A program made the position numbers and the translations under genes. The notes beneath the pieces are model-generated. The model searched no databases. It was not told the origin of the DNA and saw nothing but the letters and a program-made list of their open reading frames with translations. From Candidatus Brocadia sp. (GTDB lineage Bacteria; Planctomycetota; Brocadiia; Brocadiales; Brocadiaceae): a stretch of 32,000 nt of DNA. Location: positions 1,980,001-2,012,000 of the forward strand of contig CP091279.1 in NCBI GenBank assembly GCA_021650915.1, given 5' to 3'. This document shows positions 1-26,007 of this stretch, one piece after another (within the stretch, counting starts at the first letter, position 1; the number at the start of each line of letters is the position of its first letter).

Positions 1-334
1 GGGAGGCCATAACCCTGGGTGCATGGTTTGTTCGAATCGGGGAGCGGTCTTCATCAAAGGTGACATCACGAACGTAATGGAGGCTGTTTTCAATACTCCA
101 ATGTCCCCGGTTCAAGCGGAGTATGCGGGCAGGGTCTGCCTTTTGTTGCGTAAGGCTGGTAATGCCATAGACCGTTTCTTCGGTTGTTTTTTGGGATTTG
201 AGGTAGGTAAATTTTCTGTGGATACAAAAGACCTGTCCAACCAAGGGGAATGCAAGGTAATGGTTTAAATCGGCGCTGGTCCAGACCTGGCGGATTTCAA
301 TGCGTCCGTGATGTTTGTCGATGGTTTTGTGCTG
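1..334 (-). CDS. IS transposase, C-terminal DDE segment in the shifted frame (partial, runs off the window)
   Basis: Mirror of 14062-14395 in copy B, which reads QHKTIDKHHGRIEIRQVW...VYGITSL...NRGHWSIENSLHYVRDVTFDEDRS, the conserved C-terminus of ISAs1 transposases. Confidence 0.7.
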
Positions 335-1664
335 AGGGGGGAAAAGAGACCAGGCGGAGGTCTTCGATATGTTGTCTGAGAGTGGGTTGGTTGTCTTTTA
401 CGGTAAAGAGGTAATCGGCTTTCTTGTCTTCAACGAGATACCGCGCCGTCTCTTTTTGGGTATGCAGGGCATCGAGAGTGACCACCTTGTCCTTGATGTC
501 TAAGGGGTCAAGGAGGGTTTTCAGCGTTGGGATTTCGTTGGTTTTCTGGTCAACGGGACATTGGGCGATAACGACGCCTTTTTGCTGGAGAAAGGCAGAG
601 AGGAGATGGATTTTCTGCCCGTTTTCCTGGTATGCGCCCTTGAGGGTCTTCCCGTCAATGGCAATGGCGGTATCTTCTCCGGCAAGGGACTGAAGCCAGC
701 CGTAGAGGGCCGTATCTACCGCTTCGGCATCAACGTCTTGCAGGAACCTGCGGATGGTAGGTTCGCTGGGAGGTTCATAGATGCCGGTCTTTGGGTTCAG
801 ACGACAGCCGAGACGTTTGAGCATATTTTGACTGCATGATTTTGCCCACTCAGCGATAGCGGCAAAGCTTGTGGCAGAACACAGCAGGGCGCAAAGAGAA
901 AGGGTCATGACGGAGAGCTTTCTGTGTCGTTTGCCGCGTGATAGACGGGGATCAGGAATCTGGGATAATCGTTCTTTCAGTGATTCAGCATCTTTCAGAG
1001 AAAGGCGCATCGGTTTTACCTCCTTTGGGGTGTTTCGGGTTTCGAGATACGGTTCAGAGAGTTTTCTTTTCCCATCGGGAAGAACAGGACGAACAAAGAC
1101 CATCTTGGGTTGGTTGTGGGAATAATACCGGTGAGCGCATTTTGCAAACCCGCGGGTATATCCCAGAAACTCCCAGCCCTGGGCCTTGTAACAGGTGCCC
1201 TTGAAAGAGCGCGGATCGACAAAGGTCTCTGCAAGATAGATCGGATGGTTATAGATGGTTTGCCAGTCCCGGGATAATCGTTTGAGATTCCGGGCGAGGA
1301 CATAAGAGGCAAGGTTGGGTATACGGACATGAGGGAAGATCAGGAAACGACTGTTATTGGCAACAAAAGACAACCGCCGGTACTGAAGAAAGCAAGGCCA
1401 TCCTATCCAGCGGTCTCGTACCTTGCATTTGAGCGCCGCTGCTGACCATCCGATCAAGGCAAGCCATTGTCCCTGGTGTATCGCCAGATACCGGATGCTT
1501 TCCCCGATCAGAGAGTGAAGCCCAGGATAATGGTATTGGCGCATGAGTTCGTCCCATCGGGTTCGTTCTTCCCGACGGATGGGTCTTACTTCAATGCCGT
1601 GAAGACCGCCCGATGGTACTACGCTTTTTCGTGTCTCTTCATGGTTCATGAATCTATTATACAA
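297..1664 (-). CDS. IS transposase, upstream reading frame (DUF4338-like domain, ISAs1 DDE_Tnp_1-associated region, first part of the DDE domain)
   Basis: 455-aa ORF. The N-terminal ~200 aa carry DUF4338-like motifs (RWIGW, NNSRFLI, LAETFVD, YKAQGW). These are followed by IPDPR..RGKRH...FAAIAEWA and IAIDGKTLKG / LDALHTQ, typical of ISAs1/H-repeat transposases. The frame ends just after a G6 run at 336-341. Confidence 0.8.
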   Translation of the reverse strand: MYNRFMNHEETRKSVVPSGGLHGIEVRPIRREERTRWDELMRQYHYPGLHSLIGESIRYLAIHQGQWLALIGWSAAALKCKVRDRWIGWPCFLQYRRLSFVANNSRFLIFPHVRIPNLASYVLARNLKRLSRDWQTIYNHPIYLAETFVDPRSFKGTCYKAQGWEFLGYTRGFAKCAHRYYSHNQPKMVFVRPVLPDGKRKLSEPYLETRNTPKEVKPMRLSLKDAESLKERLSQIPDPRLSRGKRHRKLSVMTLSLCALLCSATSFAAIAEWAKSCSQNMLKRLGCRLNPKTGIYEPPSEPTIRRFLQDVDAEAVDTALYGWLQSLAGEDTAIAIDGKTLKGAYQENGQKIHLLSAFLQQKGVVIAQCPVDQKTNEIPTLKTLLDPLDIKDKVVTLDALHTQKETARYLVEDKKADYLFTVKDNQPTLRQHIEDLRLVSFPPSAQNHRQTSRTH

Positions 1665-2148
1665 GAACCATTTTGAAAAAGTCAGTTTATTCCTTTTCTT
1701 TTTTACGTGTCAGTACTTGCGCTTATACTTGACGTAGCCCTGATATGTCACGGTACTAATCGTTTTCGTTTGCGATTACATTTTTGCCACTTTTTGTTGA
1801 TAAGGATGTCCTGCCTTTCTTGCATTCCCCGTTTACCTCCAGTATTGTTGAAAGCCTGCCTGAGTGCAATTCTGACTCGAAGTAAGGGTTTTTATTAATT
1901 GTCAGAAACTCACCCACCTTTTTTACAAAGAGAACCCCGTCTTTTTCCAATCGTTACCGTTCATTCCATAAACAGATTTCCACATCTTCTTTTCGTCGAT
2001 TGTGATTACGAATAATCCACCCCTGATTCCAGAGATTCGTTAGGCTTTGAAATTCACCACGGCAATACATCCTCCCCTATTTTTAAATATTTTTGTCACC
2101 TTCTTATTTCTTAAAGCGATGGAATGATTACATGCATAGGAATTTCAA

Positions 2149-2983: not shown

Positions 2984-4792
2984 ATGAATATAACGAGAAT
3001 GTATTTAAATTTGGCCATCGTCGTATTATTGTTTTATCCAATGCTTTCGTTTGGAAAAGACTGGAGATTCCCGGCAAATAAACTTCTACATCAAACGGGA
3101 CGTAAAGAACAATTTAAGCGTGACGATGCAACATGCTGTGGATGGTCTGCAAATACTATCCTGGATATGCCAGGTTATCTTACTTATGGCCCTTACATCA
3201 ATGTATTACCAGAGGGTAAGTATGCCGTACATTTTACTCTTTTTGTTGACAATAATTCTGCAGACAATTTGGTGGTCGCTTCTATAGATGTTTACGATTC
3301 TACTGTAGATAAAATTCTGGATATCAAGCATATTCGCCGAAAGGAATTTGATGCGCCATTTACAGAAAAGATATTTTCGCTTTATTACCAACAATTAGCA
3401 GGGCATACGATTGAATTTCGCACGTACTTCCATCGCACGAGTTATCTGTTTCAGCGTGATGTTGTTGTGCAATCTCCAGATGCCCCGAAAAAACTTTCTG
3501 ATGGTTTTTGCTACGATGAAATGCAAATAACTGCAATCTATCGTAATGGGATCGATCATTGCAAATCTGTTTATTTGGTCGCCAATTGCGGAAAAGCAGA
3601 TGGTGTTGGCGTAAATATACACTCATACGATTCCTTTGGTGGTGTTATGAATGATTCCTCAGATTGCAGTTGCGAAGGTAGTCCATTTTCTTTTGATTTT
3701 ACGGAACTGTCTCAAAGCAGATTGTGGTTTCGTGCTACATTTGGACCCGCTCAACGCAACTATGATTTGGTAAATTTAGCTTTTGATTTTGAGAAGGATT
3801 TCATTGACAGTTTTCAGTTTGATGGTGACAGGTATTATCTTAACGATGCTAAGAGTCCAATCTACAAATCAGGGGATACATACAATAATATTCCTAAGGT
3901 ATACGACATAACAGGTTTGGAGGGAGATAAAAATGTAGGTGTTGCCAAGATTAAGTCTCATGCTTCGTGGGGAGAAGTAACTGGTCCATATGGTGCAGTA
4001 CGGATTACAATAACAAACGCATCCCCTTATTCCTTGCACTTTCACCATCATGATGGAACCAACAATATGGATATACAATTTGGAAGGGTTGAATATGGAG
4101 ATACGGTTTTTGTCGAAGGTGAAATTGTGATTTCAGACGGCACAGCTATTTTGCAGAATGAAAATGATTCGGATTTAAACGTAGTGGGTGATTATCTGTT
4201 TTCTTGTGATTTAGACAATGATAGTCAACATGATAAAATCGCCTGGCGTTCATCTGATGGGACATGGTTTTACAAATTATCATCCGAAAATTTTCAAATA
4301 ATCCATAGCACACAATGGGGTCTTCCCAACGATATACCCTTTGTTGATGATTTTAATGGAGACAGGATCACAGACTTTGTAGTGTATCGTGAGAATGGAG
4401 ACTTTCCTATTTGGGCGCTTTTGTATGATTACACAAAAAGCTGGGGAGCGACGGATAACTATGAAATTAAGCAGTGGGGTTTAAAAGGCGATATTCCCGT
4501 ACCGGCTGATTTCAATAAGGATGGAAAAGCAGAAATTACGGTATGGCGCTCCAGTGAAGGTAACTGGTATGTTTTGAATAGTGGTACATTTGAAGATAAT
4601 GACTGGTATGTTGTTCAATGGGGTTTGCCGGAAGACAAGCCATTTTCTGCCGACATCGATAATGATGGGTTTGCTGATATGTGTGTGTGGCGCAATAGTA
4701 CGAAAATGTATTATTTTATCCCCTCTTCTGGTTCATGTCCTGCTGGCACCCAACAACACCGGCAGGGATGTGAAACAGATTCGTTGAAGTAA
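2984..4792 (+). CDS. Secreted protein with four C-terminal FG-GAP/VCBS-like repeats and an unrecognised N-terminal region
   Basis: AGGAG RBS 9 nt upstream. Signal-peptide-like N-terminus (MNITRMYLNLAIVVLLFYPMLSFG). The C-terminal ~190 aa contain four D-x-[DN]-x-D-G...W/Y-R...W-Y units (DLDNDSQHDKIAWRSSDGTWFY, DDFNGDRITDFVVYR, ADFNKDGKAEITVWRSSEGNWYV, ADIDNDGFADMCVWRN). Confidence 0.75.
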   Translation: MNITRMYLNLAIVVLLFYPMLSFGKDWRFPANKLLHQTGRKEQFKRDDATCCGWSANTILDMPGYLTYGPYINVLPEGKYAVHFTLFVDNNSADNLVVASIDVYDSTVDKILDIKHIRRKEFDAPFTEKIFSLYYQQLAGHTIEFRTYFHRTSYLFQRDVVVQSPDAPKKLSDGFCYDEMQITAIYRNGIDHCKSVYLVANCGKADGVGVNIHSYDSFGGVMNDSSDCSCEGSPFSFDFTELSQSRLWFRATFGPAQRNYDLVNLAFDFEKDFIDSFQFDGDRYYLNDAKSPIYKSGDTYNNIPKVYDITGLEGDKNVGVAKIKSHASWGEVTGPYGAVRITITNASPYSLHFHHHDGTNNMDIQFGRVEYGDTVFVEGEIVISDGTAILQNENDSDLNVVGDYLFSCDLDNDSQHDKIAWRSSDGTWFYKLSSENFQIIHSTQWGLPNDIPFVDDFNGDRITDFVVYRENGDFPIWALLYDYTKSWGATDNYEIKQWGLKGDIPVPADFNKDGKAEITVWRSSEGNWYVLNSGTFEDNDWYVVQWGLPEDKPFSADIDNDGFADMCVWRNSTKMYYFIPSSGSCPAGTQQHRQGCETDSLK

Positions 4793-4918: not shown

Positions 4919-4976
4919 ATGGATATTCGCGAATTTGCGGTGTCAATTTTATAGTGAATGTTTAAGGAGGGTAATT

Positions 4977-5888
4977 ATGTTTTGGAAGAGAAATAATCTT
5001 TACAACGATATTCATACGGACCAGAATTTAACGGCTGCCTGGAACGCTATAAAATCAAATGGCAAGGTAGCTGGTGTTGATGGTATTAGTGTCCAGCACT
5101 ATCAGGGGAATCTGTTCTTAAATCTGAAATTGCTGCAAAGGGAATTAGAAGAAAGGACCTATTCACCGCAGCCAATTAAAAGGTTTAGTTTTACTAAGGC
5201 GGATGGCTCAAAACGCATGCTTGGAATCCTGACCGTAAGGGACAAGATTGTACAAAGGGCATTGTATCAGGTAATCGAGCCAATATTTGAGAGGTCATTC
5301 GAGGATATCAGCTATGGGTACAGAAAAAACAGAAGTGTAACTGAGGCGATTGAGCATCTGAAGGGTTATATTGATCAGGGAAACCACTGGATTGCCCACG
5401 GTGATATTGCGCGGTTTTTTGATAATATTGATACCGTTCAGTTAGGGAAACAGATAACAAGAAAGATTGACAATCAAATGATATTGCATCTGATCCACGG
5501 ATGGCTTGATCAGGAAGGCGCTTTTTCCAAAACTGAGGCAGCGCCAGTAAGGAAAAAAGGGATTTTGCAGGGTGGCATCCTGTCGCCTCTTTTCGGGAAT
5601 ATCTATCTTGACTGTTTTGATAAAAAAGCCACTGCGCAAGGACTCAATATTGTCCGGTATGCCGACAACGTAATCCTGATTGCAGAAAACCGGTGTGAGG
5701 CAAAAAAGGGCGTAAATCAGATACGACAGTTATTGAGGGAGGCAGACCTGCATTTAAACGAAAGAAAGACAATTATTACCCATTTAGAGAATGGTATTAC
5801 CCTCCTTGGGAAGAGGCTGATCCTGTGTAAGCATGGCAAGGAGGTAACGTTGTCAATTCAGGACGCACAAAAACCACAGCTTCGATGA
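4977..5888 (+). CDS. Reverse transcriptase, group-II-intron-like / CRISPR-associated type, short form without a thumb/X domain
   Basis: ATG at 4977 is preceded by AAGGAGG, so the ORF-track start at 4896 is probably an extension. RT motifs are in order: SPQPIKRFSFTKADGSKRMLGI, RDKIVQRAL, GDIARFFDNI, GILQGGILSPLFGNIYL, VRYADNVILI (YADN, not YADD), LHLNERKT, ITLLGKR. The protein ends about 20 aa after the last motif. Confidence 0.85.
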   Translation: MFWKRNNLYNDIHTDQNLTAAWNAIKSNGKVAGVDGISVQHYQGNLFLNLKLLQRELEERTYSPQPIKRFSFTKADGSKRMLGILTVRDKIVQRALYQVIEPIFERSFEDISYGYRKNRSVTEAIEHLKGYIDQGNHWIAHGDIARFFDNIDTVQLGKQITRKIDNQMILHLIHGWLDQEGAFSKTEAAPVRKKGILQGGILSPLFGNIYLDCFDKKATAQGLNIVRYADNVILIAENRCEAKKGVNQIRQLLREADLHLNERKTIITHLENGITLLGKRLILCKHGKEVTLSIQDAQKPQLR

Positions 5889-5933
5889 GCAGCGGTGCAC
5901 AGGAGAGTAACAAATGCAATCGGAGGAGATGAC

Positions 5934-6923
5934 ATGGGCATTGTATATATTATAGAGCAGGGGGCAACCATTACCAAAGCAGATGGCCGCCTGGTGGTAA
6001 GAAAAGATAGCCGGGTGCTTGAGGATATGCCGTCTAAGGATGTTGAACGGCTGGTTATCTTTGGAAACGTGCATATTACAACACCGGCAATGAAGTATCT
6101 CCTGGAAAGTGGCGCCGATGTAAGTTTTTTCAGCATCCACGGGAACTACAAGGGCCGTCTTCAGCCAAGGCTTTGCAGTGATGCGGAATTGAGACGGTTG
6201 CAATACCAAAAATCCTCCCACAGGGAAACGTGTCTGGAGGTAAGCAAAGCGTTCGTTTCCGCCAAATTAAGGAATATGGAAACATTCCTGAAGCGGCAAA
6301 AAAGAAAAACGGCACAGGCGCTGAGCGCCCTTGATACCATAAAACAGGGTTTGCTTGATATACAAAACGTACCCGACATCCATTCCTTGAGAGGGTATGA
6401 AGGCAGCTCTTCAGCAAGGTATTACAAAGCATTGAGCAGTCTGTTGCAAAAGGATTTTCAGTTTCAAAAGCGTACGCGCCGTCCGCCTGCCGATGAGGCA
6501 AACGTTCTTCTGAGCCTTGGATATACCCTCCTGTTTAACAGGGTGTATGGAGCGCTTAACGTTGTGGGACTTGACCCATACCAGGGGATGTACCATCTTG
6601 CAGATCGCGGGCACGCAACGCTGGCCTCTGATTTTATGGAGGAATTTCGTGTGCTCATTGTTGATTCTGTAGTGCTTCTCCTTGTAAACACCCGAGAAAT
6701 TACCGTAAAGGATTTCTCCCATAGCCAGGGGAATATTATGTTAACCCATGATGGGCTGAAGAAAGCCCTGTCGCGCTTCGAGGATAAGATGAATACCGTA
6801 ATAATGCACACAAGAATTTCAATGCGGGTATCGTATCAGCAATGTATCGAAATACAGGCAAGGCAGTTTGCCAGGTTCATTCGTGGTCATGATACAGCCT
6901 ATATGCCTTTTGTATTGCAATAA
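5934..6923 (+). CDS. cas1: CRISPR-associated endonuclease/integrase Cas1
   Basis: GGAGGAG RBS 5 nt before ATG 5934. Cas1-typical features: N-terminal beta-domain (VYIIEQGATITKADGRLVV), RGYEGSSSARYY, RRPPADEANVLLSLGYTLL, GMYHLADRGHATLASDFMEEFR. The candidate catalytic E/H/D residues are present. Confidence 0.9.
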   Translation: MGIVYIIEQGATITKADGRLVVRKDSRVLEDMPSKDVERLVIFGNVHITTPAMKYLLESGADVSFFSIHGNYKGRLQPRLCSDAELRRLQYQKSSHRETCLEVSKAFVSAKLRNMETFLKRQKRKTAQALSALDTIKQGLLDIQNVPDIHSLRGYEGSSSARYYKALSSLLQKDFQFQKRTRRPPADEANVLLSLGYTLLFNRVYGALNVVGLDPYQGMYHLADRGHATLASDFMEEFRVLIVDSVVLLLVNTREITVKDFSHSQGNIMLTHDGLKKALSRFEDKMNTVIMHTRISMRVSYQQCIEIQARQFARFIRGHDTAYMPFVLQ

Positions 6924-6950
6924 GTCGGTAACACAGCGGAGAACGTTTCA

Positions 6951-6968
6951 GTCCCTGCCGGCAGGGAC
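6951..6968. other. Perfect 18-nt palindrome (8-bp stem hairpin) in the cas1-cas2 spacer
   Basis: GTCCCTGCCGGCAGGGAC, preceded by GTTTCA. An A-rich tract follows rather than a T-tract. Confidence 0.5.
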
Positions 6969-7010
6969 GCCTTCTCGGACAAAACAAAAAACCTTCATCA
7001 GGGGGCAACG

Positions 7011-7295
7011 ATGAACAAGCTTTTCACCGTAGTGGCCTATGATATATCAGATGACAAGAGAAGAACAAAATTGCACCAGGCGCTGAAAAAGTATGGAAAG
7101 GCAGTTCAATTCAGTGCGTTTGAATGTTTGGTAACCGCAAAAGAGTTTGCAGGGATGATTGGGACAATACATGGTCTTTTAAAAAAGGAGGAAGATAAAT
7201 TGCGTATTTATACCTTGTGTGATGGTTGCTACAAAGGAATAAAAAATTTAGGCACTGGCGAGATAGCAAAAGAACGACATACGGTTGTCGTTTAA
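7011..7295 (+). CDS. cas2: CRISPR-associated endoribonuclease Cas2
   Basis: 94 aa. Contains FTVVAYDISDDKRRTKL...VQFSAFEC...LRIY, the classic Cas2 ferredoxin-fold signature with the N-terminal Asp. Confidence 0.9.
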   Translation: MNKLFTVVAYDISDDKRRTKLHQALKKYGKAVQFSAFECLVTAKEFAGMIGTIHGLLKKEEDKLRIYTLCDGCYKGIKNLGTGEIAKERHTVVV

Positions 7296-7331
7296 GGTAT
7301 TTTGTTGTTTTTATTGATGTGGAGGGAATCG

Positions 7332-7739
7332 ATGAAACGTGTAGCCATTATTTTAGATAAAAATTTAAAAACCGGACTCATTGGCAATGCTTCTGCCATT
7401 CTTATGGGAGCTGTTGCGCGTTGTCATCCAGAACTCTACCCTTCTGACAATATTTTGGATAGAGACAATCAACGCCATGCTGGTATTCGCTACAACACGA
7501 TCCTATTAAAAACAAGTCAGGTTCAATTGTTACGGTTGGCGGAAAAAATACCGTGTGAATATCCACAGGTAACACAGATACTTTTTTCTCAGATTGGACA
7601 AAATCTGAATAATGCATTTGAAGAATATAAAACTCAAATCAACAAAAGGAATACTACAGAGACCAAACCAGTGGGAGTTATTCTCTTCGGAGAGGATGCA
7701 GAAATCAGAGTGCTGACAAAAAAGTATTCATTACTTTAG
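7332..7739 (+). CDS. DUF2000-family protein (PTH2-like fold family, function unknown)
   Basis: GGAGGG RBS 5 nt before ATG 7332. The pattern MKRVAIILDKNL..G...NASAIL..., the central ...HAGI...ILL block and the C-terminal VGVILFGEDAEIRVLTKKYSLL match my recollection of DUF2000 (Atu0240-like) proteins. Confidence 0.55.
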   Translation: MKRVAIILDKNLKTGLIGNASAILMGAVARCHPELYPSDNILDRDNQRHAGIRYNTILLKTSQVQLLRLAEKIPCEYPQVTQILFSQIGQNLNNAFEEYKTQINKRNTTETKPVGVILFGEDAEIRVLTKKYSLL

Positions 7740-7811
7740 CCACGCCTGTGAAGTTTTCTGATAGCAATGAGGGGGTATAAATCCAAAGGAAAATAACGTA
7801 AGGAGAAAAAG

Positions 7812-8372
7812 ATGGAAAGAAAATTTGATCAAAACATACATAAAGTAGGGACTCTTGGCCCACAAGGTACAAGTAGTGAGCAGGCTGCGATACATTTTGT
7901 CCAAAAAACATTACGGGGGAAGGGGACAATTGTTCTAAAAGATACCTTTGAGGAGGTTTTTACGGACTTAACAGAAGGAACCGTCGATTATGCAATAGTG
8001 CCAGTGGCATATCCAGGTATCAATCAGTTTTACATGACTCAGTATATAGAAGATATTTTAAGTTATCGTTTTGATACTCCTGTATATGAATTGGTTACGA
8101 ACAAGAACGACATAGTAAAAACAAATCAAGTAACAGTAGCATTGCATCCGGCTACAAAGCCATTGATTCCCTTCCTTTGCGAGGACTACTTGGCTGTGAG
8201 TCTTGTAACGGCAACCTCAACAGCTGTCGCAGCTAAATTAGCTAAGGACTGCAAAGTTGATCTTGCTATTACAAACGAAGAATCAAGAAAGAGGCATCAG
8301 CTCACCGTTCTTAAGCCTTGGGGACGGATAGGAATGTCTTGGATTGTATTTGGCAATAAAAACTTCATTTAA
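7812..8372 (+). CDS. Prephenate dehydratase-fold protein without an ACT domain (BacA/AerD-type prephenate decarboxylase-like)
   Basis: AAGGAG RBS. 186 aa. Contains VGTLGPQGTSSEQAA, DYAIVPVAYPGINQFYM, FDTPVYEL, ATSTAVAAKLAKD..VDLAITNE, MSWIVFG. This resembles the PDT domain and, in length and motifs, the non-aromatising decarboxylases of the bacilysin/aeruginosin pathways. Confidence 0.5.
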   Translation: MERKFDQNIHKVGTLGPQGTSSEQAAIHFVQKTLRGKGTIVLKDTFEEVFTDLTEGTVDYAIVPVAYPGINQFYMTQYIEDILSYRFDTPVYELVTNKNDIVKTNQVTVALHPATKPLIPFLCEDYLAVSLVTATSTAVAAKLAKDCKVDLAITNEESRKRHQLTVLKPWGRIGMSWIVFGNKNFI

Positions 8373-8477
8373 CGAGGTAAGTATTTAAATACTGCAGATA
8401 AAATGAGGAAGAAATAAAAATATACTCAATACTATTCTGTTATTACGAATGTTGTTTAAATTAAGGGGACAAAAACA

Positions 8478-9107
8478 ATGAATAATGTTATCGTAAATAA
8501 TTCAAAAACTCAAATCATAAGAGATGGTTTCACTCAAAGTTCACTTTCATTAGGAAAAAAAATTATACTCCTTTTCAACGTATTAAAAGATAGTAATTTA
8601 CCACTCCATAGTCATTCTCATATACAATTTGGATATAATTTCTACGGCGCATATGATTTCTTCATAGATGGCAAAAAATATAATGCAAAACCAAGCCAAA
8701 GTTACTTAATAAACTCAAAGATTAGCCATTCTGCAATTGCAACATCTGATTATTATTCATTAGACTTTAAGTATCTTGGAAATCCATTGGAAAAGGTTTG
8801 CCAGTTTGATGTTTTTGAAAAAGAAATAAGTAATGAAGAATGTAAATTTCAAAAAATTCATTTAGAAAATACGATAATTTTAAAATATACTCCTATAAAA
8901 GAAATAGTTCAACTAAAGCTCACTTCCGGAGATAAAGAGAGGTTTTTTGTTGTAGTAAAGAAAAGATGTCAAATAAAAATAAATGTTTCATCTGCAGAAT
9001 TGTTGCCGATGAATATTTATGAAATCAACAGTTCTAATCACGATATAAATTTTGAACTTTTTAAAGAAGGAGACGAAATATTTTTATTTATAATAAAATC
9101 TACATGA
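8478..9107 (+). CDS. Cupin-domain protein (very AT-rich gene)
   Basis: 209 aa. Cupin-like metal motif LPLHSHSHIQFGYNFYG...FFIDGKKY...ISHSA. A-rich region with an AAGGGGA RBS upstream. Confidence 0.5.
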   Translation: MNNVIVNNSKTQIIRDGFTQSSLSLGKKIILLFNVLKDSNLPLHSHSHIQFGYNFYGAYDFFIDGKKYNAKPSQSYLINSKISHSAIATSDYYSLDFKYLGNPLEKVCQFDVFEKEISNEECKFQKIHLENTIILKYTPIKEIVQLKLTSGDKERFFVVVKKRCQIKINVSSAELLPMNIYEINSSNHDINFELFKEGDEIFLFIIKST

Positions 9108-9319: not shown

Positions 9320-11455
9320 ATGAATGACAACTACATCACAAAGATTGCTGAAGAACTTCGTTTGACGGCAAAGCACGTGCTGGCAACCGCCGCACTCCTT
9401 GGGGAAGGCGCTACCGTTCCCTTCATTGCCCGGTACCGAAAGGAGGCTACCGGGTCACTGGATGAGGTTGCTGTTACAACGATTCGCGACCGTCTTGACC
9501 AGCTCAGGGAATTGGATAAACGGCGGGAAGCCATTCTGAAATCCCTCGGGGAGCAGGGAAAGCTTACCGAGGAACTGAAGGGCGGCGTCCTTGCGGCTGA
9601 GACGATGGCGCTGCTGGAGGATATTTACCTGCCGTATCGTCCGAAACGCCGCACCCGGGCTACCATTGCCAGGGAAAAGGGATTAGAGCCGCTGGCCCAG
9701 GGTATCTTTGCCCAGGGTGAACCTGACGCATGTCTTACGGCTCAGGCCTTTATCAATGCCGAAAAAGGGGTCGATACCGCTGAAGATGCGCTTACAGGCG
9801 CCCGCGATATTGTCGCTGAATGGATCAATGAGGACCTCAATGCCAGGGCAAGGATTCGTGAGCTCTTCCTCGCAAAAGGGGTCTTCAGGACAAAAGTAAT
9901 TTCCGGCAAGGAAGAAGAGGGACTGAAGTATAAGGATTATTTTGCGTGGGAAGAGCCCGTGTCAACAGCGCCATCACATAGAATTCTGGCGATGAGACGC
10001 GGAGAAAAGGAGGGGTTCCTGAGCCTGCGGGTTACCCCGCCGGAAGAAGAAGCCCTAACTATTCTCGAAGCGCTCTTTGTAAAGGGGACGGGGGAATCCT
10101 CCCGGCAAGTCAGGATGGCAGCCCACGATAGCTACAAAAGGCTCCTATCTATATCCATGGAAACGGAGATCCGCCTTGAGACCAGGAAAAGAGCGGATGA
10201 AGAGGCGATCAGGGTGTTTGCGGACAATCTCAGACAACTCCTGCTTGCGCCACCCCTGGGACAAAAAAACATCCTTGCCATCGATCCGGGATTTCGCACC
10301 GGATGTAAAGTGGTGTGTCTGGACAAACAGGGCAAGCTGGTTCATACTGATATGATCTATCCCCATCAGTCTGAGAAAAACACATCGGAAGCAGCAGCAA
10401 AGATTCTTGCCCTCTGTGAAAAATTTCAGGTAGAGACCATCGCCATTGGAAATGGCACGGCGGGCAGGGAAACGGAGGCATTTGTACGAACGCTTGCCCT
10501 GCCGGAAAAGATTCATACCGTCATGGTAAATGAAAGTGGCGCCTCCGTCTATTCCGCATCGGACGTGGCACGTGAAGAATTCCCTGACCAGGATGTAACG
10601 GTGCGGGGGGCTGTGTCCATTGGCAGACGGCTTATGGATCCCCTTGCAGAGCTGGTGAAGATCGATCCCAAATCGATTGGCGTGGGACAATACCAGCATG
10701 ATGTCGATCAGGGAATCCTGAAGCGTTGTCTGGATGACGTCGTTATGAGTTGCGTGAATCTTGTTGGCGTTGAGGTCAATACGGCCAGCAAGCAGTTGCT
10801 CATGTACGTTTCTGGCCTGGGACCGCAGCTTGCCGGAAATATCGTTAAATATCGTGACGAAAACGGCCCTTTCCGGTCACGGTCGGATTTGAAAAAGGTT
10901 AGTAAATTGGGGCCAAAGGCCTTTGAGCAGGCAGCGGGCTTCCTGCGTATCAGGGACGGAGAAAACCCTCTCGACCGGAGCGCCGTTCATCCGGAGAGCT
11001 ATCACCTGGTGGATGCCATGGCAAAGGACATGAAATGCTCAGTTCTCGATTTCATGCAGGACGAGCATCTCCGGGGAAGGATCGATCTCACCAGATATGC
11101 AAACGACCTGGTAGGGTTGCCTACGCTCAGCGATATTGTAAAGGAATTGGCGAAACCAGGCCGCGACCCGAGAATGAAGTTTGAAGTATTTAGTTTTACC
11201 AGAGGAATTGACGCCATTGAGCAGGTAACACCCGGCATGAAACTCCCCGGGGTAGTAACGAACGTAACGGCATTTGGCGCCTTTGTTGATATCGGGGTGC
11301 ACCAGGACGGACTCATCCACATAAGCCAGCTTGCTGACCGCTTTGTAAAAAATCCCGGCGAGGTGGTAAAGGTGCACGAGAAAGTGACCGTTACCGTGCT
11401 GGATGTGGATCTGAAAAGGAAGAGGATATCCCTTTCCCTGAAAAAACAAACGTAA
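9320..11455 (+). CDS. tex: Tex-like transcription accessory protein (YqgF/RuvC-like, HhH and C-terminal S1 domains)
   Basis: 711 aa. N-terminal LLGEGATVPFIARYRKEATGSLDEV, central ILAIDPGFRTGCK, C-terminal S1 domain (GMKLPGVVTNVTAFGAFVDIGVHQDGLIHISQL). Confidence 0.9.
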   Translation: MNDNYITKIAEELRLTAKHVLATAALLGEGATVPFIARYRKEATGSLDEVAVTTIRDRLDQLRELDKRREAILKSLGEQGKLTEELKGGVLAAETMALLEDIYLPYRPKRRTRATIAREKGLEPLAQGIFAQGEPDACLTAQAFINAEKGVDTAEDALTGARDIVAEWINEDLNARARIRELFLAKGVFRTKVISGKEEEGLKYKDYFAWEEPVSTAPSHRILAMRRGEKEGFLSLRVTPPEEEALTILEALFVKGTGESSRQVRMAAHDSYKRLLSISMETEIRLETRKRADEEAIRVFADNLRQLLLAPPLGQKNILAIDPGFRTGCKVVCLDKQGKLVHTDMIYPHQSEKNTSEAAAKILALCEKFQVETIAIGNGTAGRETEAFVRTLALPEKIHTVMVNESGASVYSASDVAREEFPDQDVTVRGAVSIGRRLMDPLAELVKIDPKSIGVGQYQHDVDQGILKRCLDDVVMSCVNLVGVEVNTASKQLLMYVSGLGPQLAGNIVKYRDENGPFRSRSDLKKVSKLGPKAFEQAAGFLRIRDGENPLDRSAVHPESYHLVDAMAKDMKCSVLDFMQDEHLRGRIDLTRYANDLVGLPTLSDIVKELAKPGRDPRMKFEVFSFTRGIDAIEQVTPGMKLPGVVTNVTAFGAFVDIGVHQDGLIHISQLADRFVKNPGEVVKVHEKVTVTVLDVDLKRKRISLSLKKQT

Positions 11456-11610: not shown

Positions 11611-12384
11611 TTATTTTTCCGGTAGATTCCGTACCTTGCCCACCGGCGACAGATAAATGACGAACTCATCTTTTCCATCGATCCGAAGCAACCGGTCCAG
11701 GGCTTCCTGATCATAGGCGGCAATGGCGCACGTCCCGGCGCCAATTGCCTCGCAGGCGAGATAAAGGTTCTGGCATACATGCCCTGCGTCGATAGCAATC
11801 ACCTTATGGGCTGCCAGGTGGTAGCGCCACTCCATCCGGTAAGGAATAGCCGTCCAGATGAACGTCACCGGTGCATTGCCTGGGTAGGGCTGACGGTAAA
11901 CGGCATCGACAATCTTTCTGGCAAGGCGCTCTTCGGAAAATTCAAAGAGCAATTGATGAGAAAGCGGGAGATACCGATAGACGCCCTGATCCAGCCCTTT
12001 TCCATTCAGCACGACCAGATACGTCTCAAAGGCATGCCGGCATCCTGCTGAGGGTACCGTGCGATAGGCATGACTGCCCACAACCTCCCCCCGCACACCC
12101 TGGGTCGTCCAGAGCAGAAAGGAGATTTCTTCCAGGGTAAGAGGTTCTTTGGTATATGCCCTTCGACTCTCCCGATGCCCGATTGCGGTGGTCAGATCGA
12201 TTCTGGTTATGTTTTTCCACGCGTCAGGTTTCACAAGGTCGATGCGCGGCGCATTAGCCCGATAAGGCTTTTCAATGGGCGGAACATCAGCACCCCTGTT
12301 CTGATCTGTTTGTGAAAAATCGATCTCTTTCCGGATACTATCTTTGAGAAAGTATCGATATTGTTCTATCAAATCTTCATCCAT
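11611..12384 (-). CDS. SagB-type dehydrogenase / nitroreductase-family protein
   Basis: 257 aa. Contains RESRRAY, RTVPSAGCRHAFETYLVV, YRYLPLSHQL, and a nitroreductase-fold C-terminus (AIDAGHVCQNLYLACEAIGAGTCAIAAYD). Confidence 0.75.
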   Translation of the reverse strand: MDEDLIEQYRYFLKDSIRKEIDFSQTDQNRGADVPPIEKPYRANAPRIDLVKPDAWKNITRIDLTTAIGHRESRRAYTKEPLTLEEISFLLWTTQGVRGEVVGSHAYRTVPSAGCRHAFETYLVVLNGKGLDQGVYRYLPLSHQLLFEFSEERLARKIVDAVYRQPYPGNAPVTFIWTAIPYRMEWRYHLAAHKVIAIDAGHVCQNLYLACEAIGAGTCAIAAYDQEALDRLLRIDGKDEFVIYLSPVGKVRNLPEK

Positions 12385-12731
12385 GTCCTTTATCCCTCCT
12401 TCTCATTTACGTGCGCTTGCACGTTGCAGTATAACGTCAACTGCGCCTTTTTACAAAAGAATACCCTTCTCCACAATCATGTAAAAAAACAGCTATTACA
12501 ATTGGATTATGCCTTCGGTGATTTTGTTTGAGGCCACACGTAGGGGCGAAGCGCTGCTGCCGCCTCCCCCGTTGCGGCTCCCCCTTATACCGCTGGCATC
12601 GGGGAGCATTTCCGATCTTTTGTAAACCCGGAAGGCAAAAAATGGCCGAAGAACAGGTCTACGTCAAGTATAAACGCAAGTACTGACACGTAAAAAAGAA
12701 AAGGAATAAACTGGCTTTTTCAAAATGGTTC

Positions 12732-14099
12732 TTGTATAATAGTTTCATGAACCATGAAGAGACACGAAAAAGCGTAGTACCATCGGGCGGTCTTCACGGC
12801 ATTGAAGTAAGACCCATCCGTCGGGAAGAACGAACCCGATGGGACGAACTCATGCGCCAATACCATTATCCTGGGCTTCACTCTCTGATCGGGGAAAGCA
12901 TCCGGTATCTGGCGATACACCAGGGACAATGGCTTGCCTTGATCGGATGGTCAGCAGCGGCGCTCAAATGCAAGGTACGAGACCGCTGGATAGGATGGCC
13001 TTGCTTTCTTCAGTACCGGCGGTTGTCTTTTGTTGCCAATAACAGTCGTTTCCTGATCTTCCCTCATGTCCGTATACCCAACCTTGCCTCTTATGTCCTC
13101 GCCCGGAATCTCAAACGATTATCCCGGGACTGGCAAACCATCTATAACCATCCGATCTATCTTGCAGAGACCTTTGTCGATCCGCGCTCTTTCAAGGGCA
13201 CCTGTTACAAGGCCCAGGGCTGGGAGTTTCTGGGATATACCCGCGGGTTTGCAAAATGCGCTCACCGGTATTATTCCCACAACCAACCCAAGATGGTCTT
13301 TGTTCGTCCTGTTCTTCCCGATGGGAAAAGAAAACTCTCTGAACCGTATCTCGAAACCCGAAACACCCCAAAGGAGGTAAAACCGATGCGCCTTTCTCTG
13401 AAAGATGCTGAATCACTGAAAGAACGATTATCCCAGATTCCTGATCCCCGTCTATCACGCGGCAAACGACACAGAAAGCTCTCCGTCATGACCCTTTCTC
13501 TTTGTGCCCTGCTGTGTTCTGCCACAAGCTTTGCCGCTATCGCTGAGTGGGCAAAATCATGCAGTCAAAATATGCTCAAACGTCTCGGCTGTCGTCTGAA
13601 CCCAAAGACCGGCATCTATGAACCTCCCAGCGAACCTACCATCCGCAGGTTCCTGCAAGACGTTGATGCCGAAGCGGTAGATACGGCCCTCTACGGCTGG
13701 CTTCAGTCCCTTGCCGGAGAAGATACTGCCCTTGCCATTGACGGGAAGACCCTCAAGGGCGCATACCAGGAAAACGGGCAGAAAATTCATCTCCTCTCTG
13801 CCTTTCTCCAGCAAAAAGGCGTCGTTATCGCCCAATGTCCCGTTGACCAGAAAACCAACGAAATCCCAACGCTGAAAACCCTCCTTGACCCCTTAGACAT
13901 CAAGGACAAGGTGGTCACTCTCGATGCCCTGCATACCCAAAAAGAGACGGCGCGGTATCTCGTTGAAGACAAGAAAGCCGATTACCTCTTTACCGTAAAA
14001 GACAACCAACCCACTCTCAGACAACATATCGAAGACCTCCGCCTGGTCTCTTTTCCCCCCTCAGCACAAAACCATCGACAAACATCACGGACGCATTGA
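12732..14099 (+). CDS. IS transposase, upstream reading frame (DUF4338-like, DDE_Tnp_1-associated and N-terminal DDE parts)
   Basis: 455-aa ORF differing from copy A by R4S and one I/L change (EDTA[I/L]AIDGK). Motifs as for 297-1664. Confidence 0.8.
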   Translation: MYNSFMNHEETRKSVVPSGGLHGIEVRPIRREERTRWDELMRQYHYPGLHSLIGESIRYLAIHQGQWLALIGWSAAALKCKVRDRWIGWPCFLQYRRLSFVANNSRFLIFPHVRIPNLASYVLARNLKRLSRDWQTIYNHPIYLAETFVDPRSFKGTCYKAQGWEFLGYTRGFAKCAHRYYSHNQPKMVFVRPVLPDGKRKLSEPYLETRNTPKEVKPMRLSLKDAESLKERLSQIPDPRLSRGKRHRKLSVMTLSLCALLCSATSFAAIAEWAKSCSQNMLKRLGCRLNPKTGIYEPPSEPTIRRFLQDVDAEAVDTALYGWLQSLAGEDTALAIDGKTLKGAYQENGQKIHLLSAFLQQKGVVIAQCPVDQKTNEIPTLKTLLDPLDIKDKVVTLDALHTQKETARYLVEDKKADYLFTVKDNQPTLRQHIEDLRLVSFPPSAQNHRQTSRTH

Positions 14100-14508
14100 A
14101 ATCCGCCAGGTCTGGACCAGCGCCGATTTAAACCATTACCTTGCATTCCCCTTGGTTGGACAGGTCTTTTGTATCCACAGAAAATTTACCTACCTCAAAT
14201 CCCAAAAAACAACCGAAGAAACGGTCTATGGCATTACCAGCCTTACGCAACAAAAGGCAGACCCTGCCCGCATACTCCGCTTGAACCGGGGACATTGGAG
14301 TATTGAAAACAGCCTCCATTACGTTCGTGATGTCACCTTTGATGAAGACCGCTCCCCGATTCGAACAAACCATGCACCCAGGGTTATGGCCTCCCTCAAA
14401 AATTGCATCATCAGCATCTTTCGCTCACTGGGGAGAACCGCTATCGCACAAACTCTTAGAAATTTAACCTACCAACCTCACCTTGCCCTGAAACTCCTTC
14501 GCTTATAA
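14062..14508 (+). CDS. IS transposase, C-terminal DDE segment in the +1 frame
   Basis: The frame starting at 14062 reads QHKTIDKHHGRIEIRQVWTSADLNHYLAFPLVGQVFCIHRKF...GITSL...NRGHWSIENSLHYVRDVTFDEDRS. It joins the upstream frame if one C is removed from the C6 run at 14055-14060. Confidence 0.75.
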   Translation, partial: QHKTIDKHHGRIEIRQVWTSADLNHYLAFPLVGQVFCIHRKFTYLKSQKTTEETVYGITSLTQQKADPARILRLNRGHWSIENSLHYVRDVTFDEDRSPIRTNHAPRVMASLKNCIISIFRSLGRTAIAQTLRNLTYQPHLALKLLRL

Positions 14509-19883: not shown

Positions 19884-20678
19884 TTGAAGAGAGGTGTGCG
19901 CGATTTACCGGCAGATGCCTTTGCAACTGCAGCAAAACGCCTCAGTGTTAGCGAAGAACGATATCAGATTTTATACGAGGAGTTTTGCTCTACGTTTCGG
20001 GCGGGTCAGAGGGTATTTATTTTGAAAATTACGAACGGGCAGCGGTTCCTTTTCGTTCCCTACATTCTTTTTCCCATAACAATCGGGTTGGGAATGCTAT
20101 TGATCGTTTTCTGCGCCAATGCCGTTTCTGGACCGGAGAGAGCTACGAATTTGGTATCCCCACCGGGAGCCGGAACAACCCTGCACGCTGCTCCGGAAGA
20201 ACCCCTGCCACCCGAAACGGTGCAACATATGCTAAGGGAAAAAGGGCTTTTCGATTCCCGCAGGAATCCTGCAGGACATGGTATTTCTCATAAATACGAA
20301 CTGCAGAAAAACGGCAGGATTGTGTATGACCATGCCAGCGGCCTGATGTGGCATCAGGCGGGTTCACGAAACGATATGAACTACCAGGATGCGAAGGACT
20401 ATATTTCAGCGCTGAATAAAGAGCGGTTTGCCGGTTATCGCGACTGGCGTCTGCCAACCCTGGAAGAGGCAATATCATTAACAGAACCGGGGAAAAAGAA
20501 CGGAGATTTGTACCTGGATCCGATATTTGATTCCCGCCAGAGAAGGGTATGGACGGCGGATCTCAGGAAGGACGGTATGGCCTGGACGGTCTGGTTCGAT
20601 TCCGGCTTTTGTGACTATACGTATACCGACACCAACATCAGGCACTACATCAGAGCAGTCAGGACAATGCTTCCTTAA
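19884..20678 (+). CDS. DUF1566 (Lcl C-terminal domain) protein with a membrane anchor
   Basis: C-terminal HASGLMWHQ...MNYQDAKDYISALNKERFAGYRDWRLPTLEEAISL...VWTAD matches the DUF1566 signature. There is a hydrophobic segment FLFVPYILFPITIGLGMLLIVF. The start codon (TTG in the track) is uncertain. Confidence 0.7.
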   Translation: MKRGVRDLPADAFATAAKRLSVSEERYQILYEEFCSTFRAGQRVFILKITNGQRFLFVPYILFPITIGLGMLLIVFCANAVSGPERATNLVSPPGAGTTLHAAPEEPLPPETVQHMLREKGLFDSRRNPAGHGISHKYELQKNGRIVYDHASGLMWHQAGSRNDMNYQDAKDYISALNKERFAGYRDWRLPTLEEAISLTEPGKKNGDLYLDPIFDSRQRRVWTADLRKDGMAWTVWFDSGFCDYTYTDTNIRHYIRAVRTMLP

Positions 20679-25894: not shown

Positions 25895-26007
25895 AGAGTC
25901 CTGCCTTTTTCAAAATGATTACAATGGTTTTCGTGAATATCGTGAGTATACGTTAGCAGTTTACCGTCCTTATGGTTACGCCAGAGTCGCGCCTCAACCG
26001 TCAAACC

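Follow-up and report, generated by a model that had tools for sequence, protein, structure and literature searches.

The window, that is, the whole 32-kb stretch of DNA analysed here, carries an RT-Cas1-Cas2 module whose cas2 gene is directly followed by three genes of another kind, encoding a DUF2000 protein, a short protein with a prephenate dehydratase (PDT) fold and a cupin. Whether this trio works together with the CRISPR adaptation genes or merely lies beside them is the question that the locus raises. An earlier note on this DNA had named both possibilities, functional partners of the cas genes or an unrelated small-metabolite cassette. Our data support the latter, and we put the probability at about 80% that the trio is a small, horizontally acquired, incomplete metabolic cassette of the prephenate branch and not a CRISPR accessory.

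The three genes behind cas2

All three open reading frames are intact and lie on the strand of cas2, as had been described (Table 1). Of the gap lengths given before, those between the DUF2000 and the PDT-like gene (72 nt) and between the PDT-like gene and the cupin gene (105 nt) were reproduced, whereas cas2 and the DUF2000 gene are separated by 36 and not by 37 nt. Each gene has a Shine-Dalgarno-like sequence 6-9 nt upstream (GGAGGG, AAGGAG and AAGGGG). An alternative TTG start of the DUF2000 gene at 7302 gives 145 aa, while the gene calls of the public contigs start at 7332 (135 aa). In agreement with the earlier note, the trio is not adjoined by any reductase, aminotransferase or ligase gene; its neighbours encode Cas2, Tex and, next after Tex on the opposite strand, a SagB-type nitroreductase. 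Partners of the types BacC (oxidase), BacD (ATP-grasp ligase), BacE (exporter), BacF (aminotransferase) and BacG (reductase) are all absent next to the trio, and the only SDR and amino-acid dehydrogenase genes of the window are located on the opposite strand, at a distance of over 15 kb. Rfam families were not found in the window.

Table 1. Features of the locus; positions are those of the window
Feature	Positions	Strand	Evidence or remark
ISAs1-family IS copy, cut by window start	1-1742	-	inverted twin of 12654-14395 copy
FG-GAP repeat protein	2984-4792	+	Pfam; syntenic with RT-Cas1-Cas2 module in L092
Group-II-intron-like CRISPR-associated RT, own gene	4977-5888	+	Pfam RVT_1; PADLOC RT 6e-94
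Cas1	5934-6923	+	Pfam Cas_Cas1 4e-90; NCBIfam cas1 equivalog 4.3e-86
cas2	7011-7295	+	Pfam CRISPR_Cas2 3.4e-20
Terminator-like hairpin and U-rich tract, cas2-cassette boundary	7262-7312	+	pattern scan, RNA fold
DUF2000 (PF09391) gene, 135 aa	7332-7739	+	ATG start; Pfam
BacA-type PDT-fold gene, 186 aa (predicted)	7812-8372	+	Pfam PDT; HMMER; BLASTP
Divergent BacB-like cupin gene, 209 aa (predicted)	8478-9107	+	PDB match, phmmer, BLASTP
Tex gene, next after cupin	9320-11455		
Second ISAs1-family IS copy	12654-14395	+	inverted repeat; transposase families

The 186-aa protein matches Pfam PDT (8.1e-13, residues 12-65 aligned) and shows no match to an ACT domain, as expected from the earlier description of a short PDT-fold protein lacking ACT. 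A word-indexed homology search with this protein gave no match; its relatives came from an exhaustive HMMER search, which found 331 of them with end-to-end alignments. Their source names include the Bacillus "bacilysin biosynthesis protein BacA" as well as "prephenate decarboxylase". Bacillus BacA itself is 35% identical over residues 12-181 (BLASTP, E 4e-32). The protein has kept G16 and W177, all 17 near-invariant positions of the family, the motif TLGPxGTSSE and the C-terminal motif M-x-W-x-x-F. On these homologies, it is a full-length member of the BacA prephenate-decarboxylase family. Its closest surveyed relative in species-representative genomes shares 41% identity, and by distance it lies closer to the clade that is partnered with BacB. 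PDB sequence searches found no structure of BacA, and with the single 186-aa sequence (phmmer) the PDB matches stayed at noise level, with prephenate dehydratases at E 1.8.

For the cupin, the best PDB match is BacB (3h7j, E 0.0034), and BLASTP with BacB of B. spizizenii gave an E value of 7e-7. The metal motif HxHx3Q...H is present (H44, H46, Q50 and H84) and aligns to HKHRNEQ...H of BacB. To place the gene in its context, we used a neighbourhood survey of 80 of the at least 235 BacA-family loci (±10 kb), collected by a genome scan with an alignment of 11 sequences as query. In 49 of the 80 loci, a cupin of about 230 aa starts a few nt to about 90 nt past the bacA homologue. A phmmer search with the cupin among the 4041 neighbourhood ORFs returned 45 matches in 45 loci; the 40 matches listed are all located immediately 3' of a bacA homologue, genuine Bacillus bacB included, and 44 of the 45 fit the BacB slot in position and length. 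The similarity is restricted to a part of the protein. With a BacB HMM, residues 31-91 align to the C-terminal cupin of BacB with about 25 bits and a second stretch gives 0.3 bits; similarity to the full-length bicupin of about 235 aa was not found, one cupin domain is recognisable, and in the C-terminal 110 residues similarity to BacB is not detectable. A single-sequence AF2 model reached a pLDDT of 33.5, which is too low for a fold comparison with BacB. A plasmid collection held neither a homologue of the cupin nor DNA similar to the locus. Taken together, sequence and position indicate a divergent, putatively BacB-like cupin in the BacB slot directly downstream of a bacA homologue. The three family assignments and the analogy to BacA/BacB made in the earlier note are supported by the exhaustive HMMER search, the names of the source records, the PDB matches and a gene order that is conserved.

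A more ordinary reading would be that the 186-aa protein is a truncated prephenate dehydratase, a pheA fragment without ACT, next to an unrelated cupin of the AraC or sugar-binding type. It would explain that Pfam and NCBIfam name the protein only PDT or prephenate dehydratase, and this just for residues 11-65, and that the Pfam matches of the cupin are AraC_binding (2.4e-5, 24.5 bits, cut-off 21.1) and Cupin_2 (7.9e-5, 22.7 bits, cut-off 27.2), at or near threshold. However, nearly all of the 150 BacA-family relatives listed among the 331 are proteins of 160-280 aa that stand alone and align over their whole length, BacA among them. Moreover, the BacA-family profile matches solved prephenate dehydratases weakly (E 2.6e-4), in an alignment that ends before the M-x-W-x-x-F motif, and the cupin protein has no DNA-binding domain and specifically recognises genes in the BacB position. 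We give this reading the smallest chance of all.

The DUF2000 protein matches PF09391 with 1.3e-17 and 64.5 bits (cut-off 25), and the family profile finds the PDB entry 2gax (Atu0240), the DUF2000 member with a solved structure, with 9.8e-8. An AF2 model (pLDDT 72.8) was placed by Foldseek on 2gax (E 1.7e-6, TM 0.66, 17% identity) and, marginally, on the archaeal Pth2 hydrolases 1xty, 1rlk and 2zv3 (E 0.05-0.08), which bears out the DUF2000/PTH2-like assignment made before. To our knowledge, no member of the DUF2000 family has a known function, and the literature that we searched contained no mention of the family.

Elsewhere, DUF2000 adjoins BacA-like genes in 16 of the 80 BacA-family loci, 14 from Streptomyces/Amycolatopsis and two from Bacillota. 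In the 14 loci it lies 2-3 kb from the decarboxylase gene, and in the annotated one of them (L042) the order is DUF2000, PaaK-like ligase, class IV aminotransferase, decarboxylase. The same paaK-ilvE-decarboxylase order has been published for a type of 2,5-dihydrophenylalanine cluster (bioRxiv 10.1101/2025.04.26.650784). The two Bacillota loci contain decarboxylase, DUF2000, FGE-sulfatase, Mo-oxidoreductase and permease genes. On the Priestia plasmid NZ_CP072475.1, 1 nt separates a short PDT-like gene from a DUF2000 gene whose product is 46% identical to that of the window, and ATP-grasp, MFS and aminotransferase genes adjoin the pair. The association of DUF2000 with PDT/BacA-like genes is thus seen in three other architectures besides the window, in three phyla. 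This recurrence suggests that prephenate decarboxylases probably have in DUF2000 a dedicated companion that had so far gone unrecognised, a claim that we hold less firmly than the main reading. A co-occurrence of DUF2000 with a BacB-type cupin was seen in none of the 80 surveyed loci; the three-gene combination of the window has no precedent among them, which counts against the reading as a single cassette.

The cassette occupies the leader/array position of related modules

RT, Cas1 and Cas2 are intact and stand in canonical order. Their identities, as given in the earlier note, were confirmed with Pfam, NCBIfam and PADLOC; RT and Cas1 are encoded by separate genes and are not fused. The RT also matches the N-terminal part of the PADLOC model Cas1_IIIb, and the same RT protein (KKO19091.1, LAQJ01000220.1) has been catalogued as a CRISPR-Cas RT (PMC8934634). 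The 32 kb of the window contain no CRISPR array, so that the description of the module as array-less holds within this range, and CRISPR effector genes are likewise absent from it. For a second RT, at 21427-22389, we considered a diversity-generating retroelement and rejected it, as no VR/TR repeat pair was found despite a nearby Lcl_C/DUF1566 protein.

The closest relative of the module is found in locus L092. Its RT, Cas1 and Cas2 are 67%, 70% and 66% identical to those of the window, and the order FG-GAP-RT-Cas1-Cas2 is the same, with an FG-GAP gene upstream of the RT that is 34-40% identical to that of the window (tblastn). Past cas2, L092 has a leader of about 360 nt and then four 36-nt repeats, exactly where the trio of the window starts. 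In blastn, only positions 4963-6923 and 7011-7304 of the window aligned with L092; the DNA homology ends at 7304, 9 nt past the cas2 stop. Arrays 3' of cas2 are also found in L104, L114, L140/143, L142, L164 and L166, and in eight related loci the array starts 170-650 nt past cas2. Relatives of the RT are accompanied by arrays, Cas6 or RAMP genes. The cassette therefore occupies the position of the leader and array in the relatives of this module.

Homology to the L092 leader was undetectable in the cas2-DUF2000 gap, the cupin-Tex spacer and the IS-FG-GAP spacer. The last 12 nt at the 3' end of the L092 repeat (ATGTCACGGTAC) are also found next to the IS, at 1745-1756 and thus 2 nt away from its end (BLAST E 0.04). 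An extended local alignment scored 16 and was no better than shuffles (12 ± 2, maximum 25); the match was not counted as evidence for an array.

If the trio served the array-less RT-Cas1-Cas2 genes as an accessory, transcribed together with them from the cas promoter and with its product or its PTH2-like protein acting in adaptation or defence, a recurrent co-occurrence with cas genes would be expected. We found none across lineages. Cas1, Cas2 or RT genes were present near BacA-family genes in 0 of the 80 loci, and BacA-like or DUF2000 genes in 0 of 84 loci holding relatives of the window RT, 17 of them with Cas1 and 14 with Cas2. In the loci surveyed, DUF2000 and BacA-like genes thus do not recur beside RT-cas1-cas2, the very outcome that the earlier note had named as refuting the functional partnership that it proposed as an alternative. 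None of the trio proteins matched a PADLOC model. As a side observation, one of the 84 loci, without cas genes, contains an unrelated cupin. The juxtaposition of trio and cas2 was met only in contigs whose encoded proteins are identical or 98% identical to those of the window, that is, in one species. It is the same in every public contig of this organism, which may be taken in favour of an accessory but also leaves no variation inside the lineage from which the separability of cas genes and trio could be seen.

The boundary itself has been described as lacking a visible terminator. We found, however, a hairpin at 7272-7293 with a U-rich tail to about 7312, overlapping the cas2 stop codon (-15.1 kcal/mol, z = -3.1; none of 200 shuffles as stable), which speaks against an accessory. 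The hairpin is AU-rich and weak, and the gap between cas2 and the DUF2000 gene is tight and showed no sigma-70-like promoter; hence cas2 transcripts may read through into the trio, which would then be co-expressed. These features, together with the shared strand, fit an accessory role, and a DUF2000 relative in L008 (52% identical), which starts 1 nt past a HicA toxin gene (stop 2846, start 2848), hints at contexts in defence islands. Against this stand, besides the surveys, the leader and array that the relatives have in place of the trio, a composition of the trio unlike that of the cas genes, and the Priestia plasmid, where the DUF2000 gene is translationally coupled to the PDT-like gene and no cas gene lies within the 12.4 kb read. 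We therefore regard an accessory role as very improbable. Equally slight is the chance that a cassette expressed by read-through has been co-opted with the orphan RT-Cas1-Cas2 genes into one lineage-specific defence or stress unit, in which a prephenate-derived Phe/Tyr antimetabolite pathway would be combined with self-protection by the PTH2-like protein.

Probable foreign origin and putative product

The trio is compositionally foreign. GC3 is 0.32 for DUF2000, 0.34 for the BacA-like gene and 0.19 for the cupin gene, compared with 0.46-0.50 for RT and Cas1 and 0.52-0.57 for Tex, SagB-like and other core genes. The GC content of the cupin gene is extremely low (0.26) and differs strongly from that of the other two (0.38-0.40), and the trio may therefore not have arrived as one unit. 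The two IS copies form a 1742-nt inverted repeat, reported as 100% complementary, with two mismatches at the termini by reading, and bracket a 10.9-kb segment that carries the cassette together with the FG-GAP, cas, Tex and SagB-like genes. Both copies are break points of the public draft contig LAQJ01000220.1 (11274 nt). Insertion scars and flanking direct or inverted repeats were not found around the trio.

These features would also suit a relic without function, in which rearrangement has stranded part of a larger bacilysin- or aeruginosin-like cluster: the partners of BacC, D, E, F or G type are missing from the neighbourhood, GC is heterogeneous within the trio, near-identical IS copies enclose the region and the C-terminal half of the cupin has no recognisable counterpart in BacB. 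On the other hand, the ORFs are intact and have good ribosome-binding sites, and a 209-codon ORF in DNA of 26% GC is improbable as a chance survivor. In addition, the BacA-like protein retains every conserved family position, the cupin retains its metal motif, and contigs from many sequencing runs encode an identical BacA-like protein. A relic is therefore unlikely, although it deserves more weight than the other rival readings.

We thus favour a small, acquired prephenate-branch cassette. By homology to BacA, the 186-aa protein would decarboxylate prephenate without aromatization, yielding endocyclic dihydro-4-hydroxyphenylpyruvate (en-H2HPP), and the cupin, by homology to BacB, would then isomerize the diene of en-H2HPP to the exocyclic form. 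The trio has no dedicated reductase, aminotransferase, ligase or exporter gene next to it; its end product would therefore be a keto acid of the H2HPP type or the dihydro-amino acid that general aminotransferases make from it. For DUF2000, whose companion role is suggested by the recurrence of its gene neighbourhoods, our speculative favourite is an ester hydrolase that might protect the producer, for instance by removing the Phe or Tyr analogue from mischarged tRNA; alternatively, the protein could act on the labile diene keto acid, as an enzyme or as a chaperone. In the likeliest history, foreign DNA replaced or displaced the array, in a region that was also struck by two IS copies. What stayed behind would be an orphan adaptation module, placed next to the cassette by a lineage-specific accident.

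Comparison with known systems

The host is presumably an anammox planctomycete, and we know of no prephenate-derived antimetabolites from this group. Here, a deep-branching pair of the BacA/BacB type, at most 41% identical to any species-representative genome, is found in such an organism. The association of DUF2000 with prephenate decarboxylases, which includes dihydrophenylalanine-type clusters, is a reusable lead and offers a testable context for an uncharacterised family; the companion role, if true, would be the first functional context for this orphan family. Had it held, the proposed connection to CRISPR would have been new.

The closest parallel is the bacilysin cluster bacABCDEFG of Bacillus, in which an ACT-less PDT-fold decarboxylase is also followed by a cupin on the same strand and the BacA proteins share 35% identity. 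The roles of BacA in the non-aromatizing decarboxylation of prephenate and of BacB as an isomerase have been described (PMC9147277). In contrast to bacilysin, the window lacks equivalents of bacC, D, E, F and G, a DUF2000 gene precedes the pair, and the cupin is a protein of 209 aa with one recognisable domain, whereas BacB is a bicupin of 235 aa.

A decarboxylase and cupin pair, AerD/AerE, is also known from the Choi moiety of the cyanobacterial aeruginosins and was seen in L027 (Hormoscilla) and L048 (Oscillatoria), which we take to be aer-type loci. AerE, like BacB, isomerizes the endocyclic diene to the exocyclic form. In the window, however, no AerF-type reductase or NRPS genes are nearby, and the similarity of the window cupin to the cyanobacterial ones is weak (E about 2e-3). 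The clusters for 2,5-dihydrophenylalanine (DHP/H2Phe), plu3041-3043 in Photorhabdus and their Streptomyces counterparts, share a prephenate decarboxylase of the same family, and in the Streptomyces/Amycolatopsis loci surveyed DUF2000 is found near the decarboxylase and heads the paaK-ilvE-decarboxylase operon in L042. Unlike these clusters, the window lacks both a PaaK-like ligase and a class IV aminotransferase, and only the window has a BacB-like cupin. For the DUF2000 protein, Atu0240 (2GAX) and, more weakly, archaeal Pth2 are matches at the level of the fold.

With the RT-associated CRISPR adaptation modules, which are mostly of type III, the locus shares RT, Cas1 and Cas2 in canonical order; it differs from them in having no array or effectors and a metabolic cassette at the leader/array position. 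It is a clear example of an RT-Cas1-Cas2 module whose adjacent array was lost to foreign DNA, and it cautions that adjacency in rearranged, IS-bracketed regions should not be read as functional linkage.

The three genes behind cas2

The earlier note had described a DUF2000 gene, a 186-aa gene of prephenate dehydratase (PDT) fold and a cupin gene following cas2 on the same strand, across short gaps and with no visible terminator. This trio was confirmed by the gene order in the ORF listing, by spacings of 36, 72 and 105 nt from cas2 onwards and by a Shine-Dalgarno-like sequence upstream of every trio gene (3/3). The statement about the terminator was too strong, since cas2 overlaps, at its stop codon, a hairpin that runs into a U-rich tail (7272-7312; -15.1 kcal/mol, z = -3.1). 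This hairpin is weak, and the trio may still be co-transcribed with cas2. A perfect GC-rich hairpin, GTCCCTGCCGGCAGGGAC, lies inside the 87-nt cas1-cas2 spacer (6945-6985); it occurs once in the window and folds at -18.6 kcal/mol, with a z of only -1.9. In L092, the closest relative of the RT-Cas1-Cas2 module, cas1 and cas2 instead overlap, leaving no spacer of this kind.

Genes around the trio, with window coordinates, listing or scans run, and GC3 (one range for Tex, SagB-like and other core genes)
Gene	Position	Strand	Listing or scan	GC3
FG-GAP protein	2984-4792	+	ORF listing; Pfam, NCBIfam, PADLOC scans	
Group-II-intron-like reverse transcriptase (RT)	4977-5888	+	PADLOC 'RT' 6e-94	0.46
Cas1	5934-6923	+	Pfam, NCBIfam, PADLOC scans	0.50
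Cas2	7011-7295	+	Pfam, NCBIfam, PADLOC scans	0.38
DUF2000	7332-7739	+	Pfam, NCBIfam, PADLOC scans	0.32
PDT-fold protein, ACT-less (BacA-like)	7812-8372	+	Pfam, NCBIfam, PADLOC scans	0.34
Cupin	8478-9107	+	Pfam, NCBIfam, PADLOC scans	0.19
Tex	9320-11455	+	Pfam, NCBIfam, PADLOC scans	0.52-0.57
SagB-type nitroreductase	11611-12384	-	Pfam, NCBIfam, PADLOC scans	0.52-0.57

An identical 186-aa protein is encoded on contig LAQJ01000220.1 of GCA_000987375.1, which we take to be Candidatus Brocadia fulgida, and with identical synteny on many Logan contigs. The draft contig (11274 nt) breaks at both IS copies. On a JGI contig, a 98% identical DUF2000 is positioned behind RT-Cas1-Cas2.

A predicted BacA-type decarboxylase and a probable BacB-type cupin

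A word-indexed homology search with the 186-aa protein returned no relatives; an exhaustive HMMER search of 1.84 billion representatives recovered 331. Among the 150 listed, nearly all are 160-280 aa long, and most align over practically their whole length. Some relatives belong to clusters named 'bacilysin biosynthesis protein BacA', with members from many Bacillus genomes, or 'prephenate decarboxylase'. The window protein is 35% identical to Bacillus BacA across residues 12-181 (BLASTP, E 4e-32). In a 46-sequence alignment it has retained the two invariant residues (G16, W177) and 17/17 near-invariant ones, including the TLGPxGTSSE and the C-terminal M-x-W-x-x-F motifs. The BacA-family profile matches solved prephenate dehydratases weakly (4lub at 2.6e-4), in alignments that stop short of the M-x-W-x-x-F motif; PDB sequence searches found no BacA structure. 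Judged by its sequence, the protein is a homologue of the BacA-type prephenate decarboxylases.

The top PDB match of the cupin is BacB (3h7j, E 0.0034). We scanned the GTDB species-representative genomes with the BacA-family alignment, obtained 235 relatives and kept the top 80 loci, each flanked by 10 kb. A phmmer search with the window cupin against the 4041 ORFs lying up to 6 kb from a bacA homologue matched 45 ORFs in 45 loci, with genuine Bacillus bacB among them. All 40 matches listed lie on the same strand, directly 3' of the bacA homologue. Of all 45, 44 pass a filter on position after that gene and on length (190-260 aa). After HMM iteration, a BacB-type cupin gene was found in 49/80 loci. 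Only one cupin domain is similar (window residues 31-91 against the C-terminal cupin of BacB), with a conserved HxHx3Q...H motif; no similarity was detected for the other 110 residues, and single-sequence structure prediction gave no usable model. We accept the cupin as probably BacB-like in function and as sitting where BacB would. Whereas BacB belongs to a bicupin family, the match here is confined to one domain, and the window protein would be a divergent BacB-type partner. The HMMER relatives, the alignment to BacA, the BacB structure match and the cupins in BacB position support the families assigned earlier and the proposed analogy to BacA/BacB.

BacA/BacB chemistry was reportedly addressed by Mahlstedt and Walsh in 2010 and by Parker and Walsh in 2012. 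Following the characterised BacA and BacB (PMC9147277), the decarboxylase would convert prephenate to endocyclic dihydro-4-hydroxyphenylpyruvate (en-H2HPP), from which the cupin would form the exocyclic ex-H2HPP. No dedicated downstream enzymes are adjacent to the trio.

Genes at 24635-28380 (-) encode a Glu/Leu/Phe/Val-type amino-acid dehydrogenase, a cysteine-dioxygenase-like cupin, a di-haem cytochrome c peroxidase and SDR proteins; dehydrogenase and SDR are activities absent from the cassette. We rejected these genes as cassette partners, as they lie more than 15 kb away on the wrong strand.

Relation to the CRISPR genes and to the IS elements

The proposed neighbourhood survey was run from both sides. 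No Cas1, Cas2 or RT homologue was found within 10 kb in any of the 80 BacA-family loci. The cas-side sample, a metagenome scan plus RT-relative loci, comprised 84 loci, with Cas1 in 17, Cas2 in 14 and arrays beginning 170-650 nt after cas2 in eight; none carries a BacA-like or DUF2000 gene. No PADLOC model matches any trio protein (0/3), and there is no CRISPR array anywhere in the 32-kb window. Its RT is KKO19091.1, given as a CRISPR-Cas RT in PMC8934634.

The closest RT relative (P0196 on L092, 67% identical) stands in the same order of FG-GAP, RT, Cas1 and Cas2. DNA homology between the two loci (72.6% over RT-Cas1, 70.8% over cas2) ends at 7304, 9 nt past the cas2 stop. Downstream of the L092 cas2 come a ~360-nt leader and then four 36-nt repeats (GTCTGATGGGACGTCCCATATTTAATGTCACGGTAC, spaced 72-74 nt), whereas the window has the trio at that place. 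In other relatives, cas2 is followed by Cas6 and type III RAMP genes (L093) or by a group II intron RT (L094). Nothing comparative supports a functional link, and the suggestion that the trio partners RT-Cas1-Cas2 is not supported: the two co-occur in 0/80 BacA-family and 0/84 RT-relative loci.

The GC3 of the trio sets it apart from the core genome as foreign; the spacers flanking the cupin gene have 27-30% GC. The trio may be a mosaic, because the composition of the cupin gene differs from that of the other two. In the best-supported reading, an incomplete prephenate-branch cassette was acquired horizontally and occupies the leader/array position of RT-Cas1-Cas2, in a single lineage and an IS-hit region. 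The other possibility raised in the earlier note, an unrelated small-metabolite cassette, fits this reading, given the foreign GC3 and the lack of co-occurrence with cas genes in 80 + 84 loci.

Near-identical inverted ISAs1-family copies (1-1742 and 12654-14395) bracket a 10.9-kb segment from the FG-GAP to the SagB-like gene, trio included, and point to recent rearrangement. What they enclose may represent a composite-transposon-like unit, or else a segment that can invert. The N-terminal region of the transposase matches Pfam DruA (Druantia protein, 3e-23), and in the right-hand copy the frame is interrupted at ~14099-14152. The sequence ATGTCACGGTAC (1745-1756), separated by 2 nt from the left copy's inner end and on the strand of the cas genes, equals the 3'-terminal 12 nt of the L092 repeat. 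One possibility is a terminal repeat truncated by the IS, with the remaining array beyond the window start; another is chance (BLAST E 0.04; extended alignment not significant). The 1.24 kb between IS end and FG-GAP gene (1743-2983) contain no ORF >70 aa; their promoter-proximal part is weakly homologous to the L092 FG-GAP upstream region (local score 26 vs null 16 ± 2.3).

A second CRISPR-type group-II-like RT lies at 21427-22389 (PADLOC RT 4e-85), without Cas1. Genes for an FG-GAP repeat protein (18147-19874) and an Lcl_C/DUF1566 protein (19884-20678) come before it, and one for a 547-aa protein (22859-24502) with no Pfam or PADLOC match comes after it; neither a VR/TR pair nor an Rfam group II intron was found. 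An FG-GAP gene thus recurs upstream of both window RTs and of the L092 RT.

DUF2000 and the prephenate decarboxylases

In 16/80 loci, DUF2000 is found no more than 3 kb from the bacA homologue. The contexts shared with a decarboxylase are 14 Streptomyces/Amycolatopsis loci, two Bacillota loci and a Priestia plasmid. L042, the one annotated of the 14, carries, in this order, DUF2000, a PaaK-like ligase, a class IV aminotransferase, the decarboxylase, an ornithine-cyclodeaminase-like protein, EamA and a P450. The Bacillota loci (L063, L091) combine decarboxylase, DUF2000, FGE-sulfatase, Mo-oxidoreductase and amino-acid permease with a divergent MocR-type regulator. On the Priestia plasmid (NZ_CP072475.1), a 184-aa PDT-like gene is followed at a distance of 1 nt by DUF2000 (46% identity to the window protein), with ATP-grasp, MFS and aminotransferase genes divergent from the pair. 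With the window counted in, the association spans four architectures and three phyla.

Among the 80 loci, no decarboxylase has both a BacB-type cupin (49 loci) and DUF2000 (16 loci) as neighbours, and 15 loci have neither; the window, with both, is without precedent in this sample. A neighbour-joining tree places BacB-partnered decarboxylases apart from DUF2000-partnered and unpartnered ones. The tree splits in the same way as the partners. Exclusivity and tree suggest two alternative branches of the pathway, one marked by DUF2000 and the other by BacB. The window decarboxylase is a deep branch, whose 15 nearest neighbours are all BacB-partnered.

From these neighbourhoods, DUF2000 appears to belong with the decarboxylase, not with cas2. 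Its fold matches 2GAX, the solved DUF2000 member, and, marginally, archaeal Pth2 hydrolases; the searchable library contained no mention of DUF2000. Our favourite, though speculative, is a PTH2-like ester hydrolase that might shield the producer from a Phe/Tyr analogue. The nearest named relative (52% identical; L008, GCA_030699855.1, 2408-3258) has a setting that differs from the prephenate-decarboxylase context: a HicA toxin gene, itself overlapping a DUF7387 gene, stops 1-2 nt before it, and the contig ends 163 nt downstream.

The most useful by-product of the analysis is the linkage of DUF2000 to prephenate decarboxylases. The paaK-ilvE-decarboxylase core of a published 2,5-dihydrophenylalanine cluster type (bioRxiv 10.1101/2025.04.26.650784) is also present in L042, there with DUF2000 first. 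The trio adds a deep-branching BacA/BacB-type member to a known kind, in an unusual three-gene combination.
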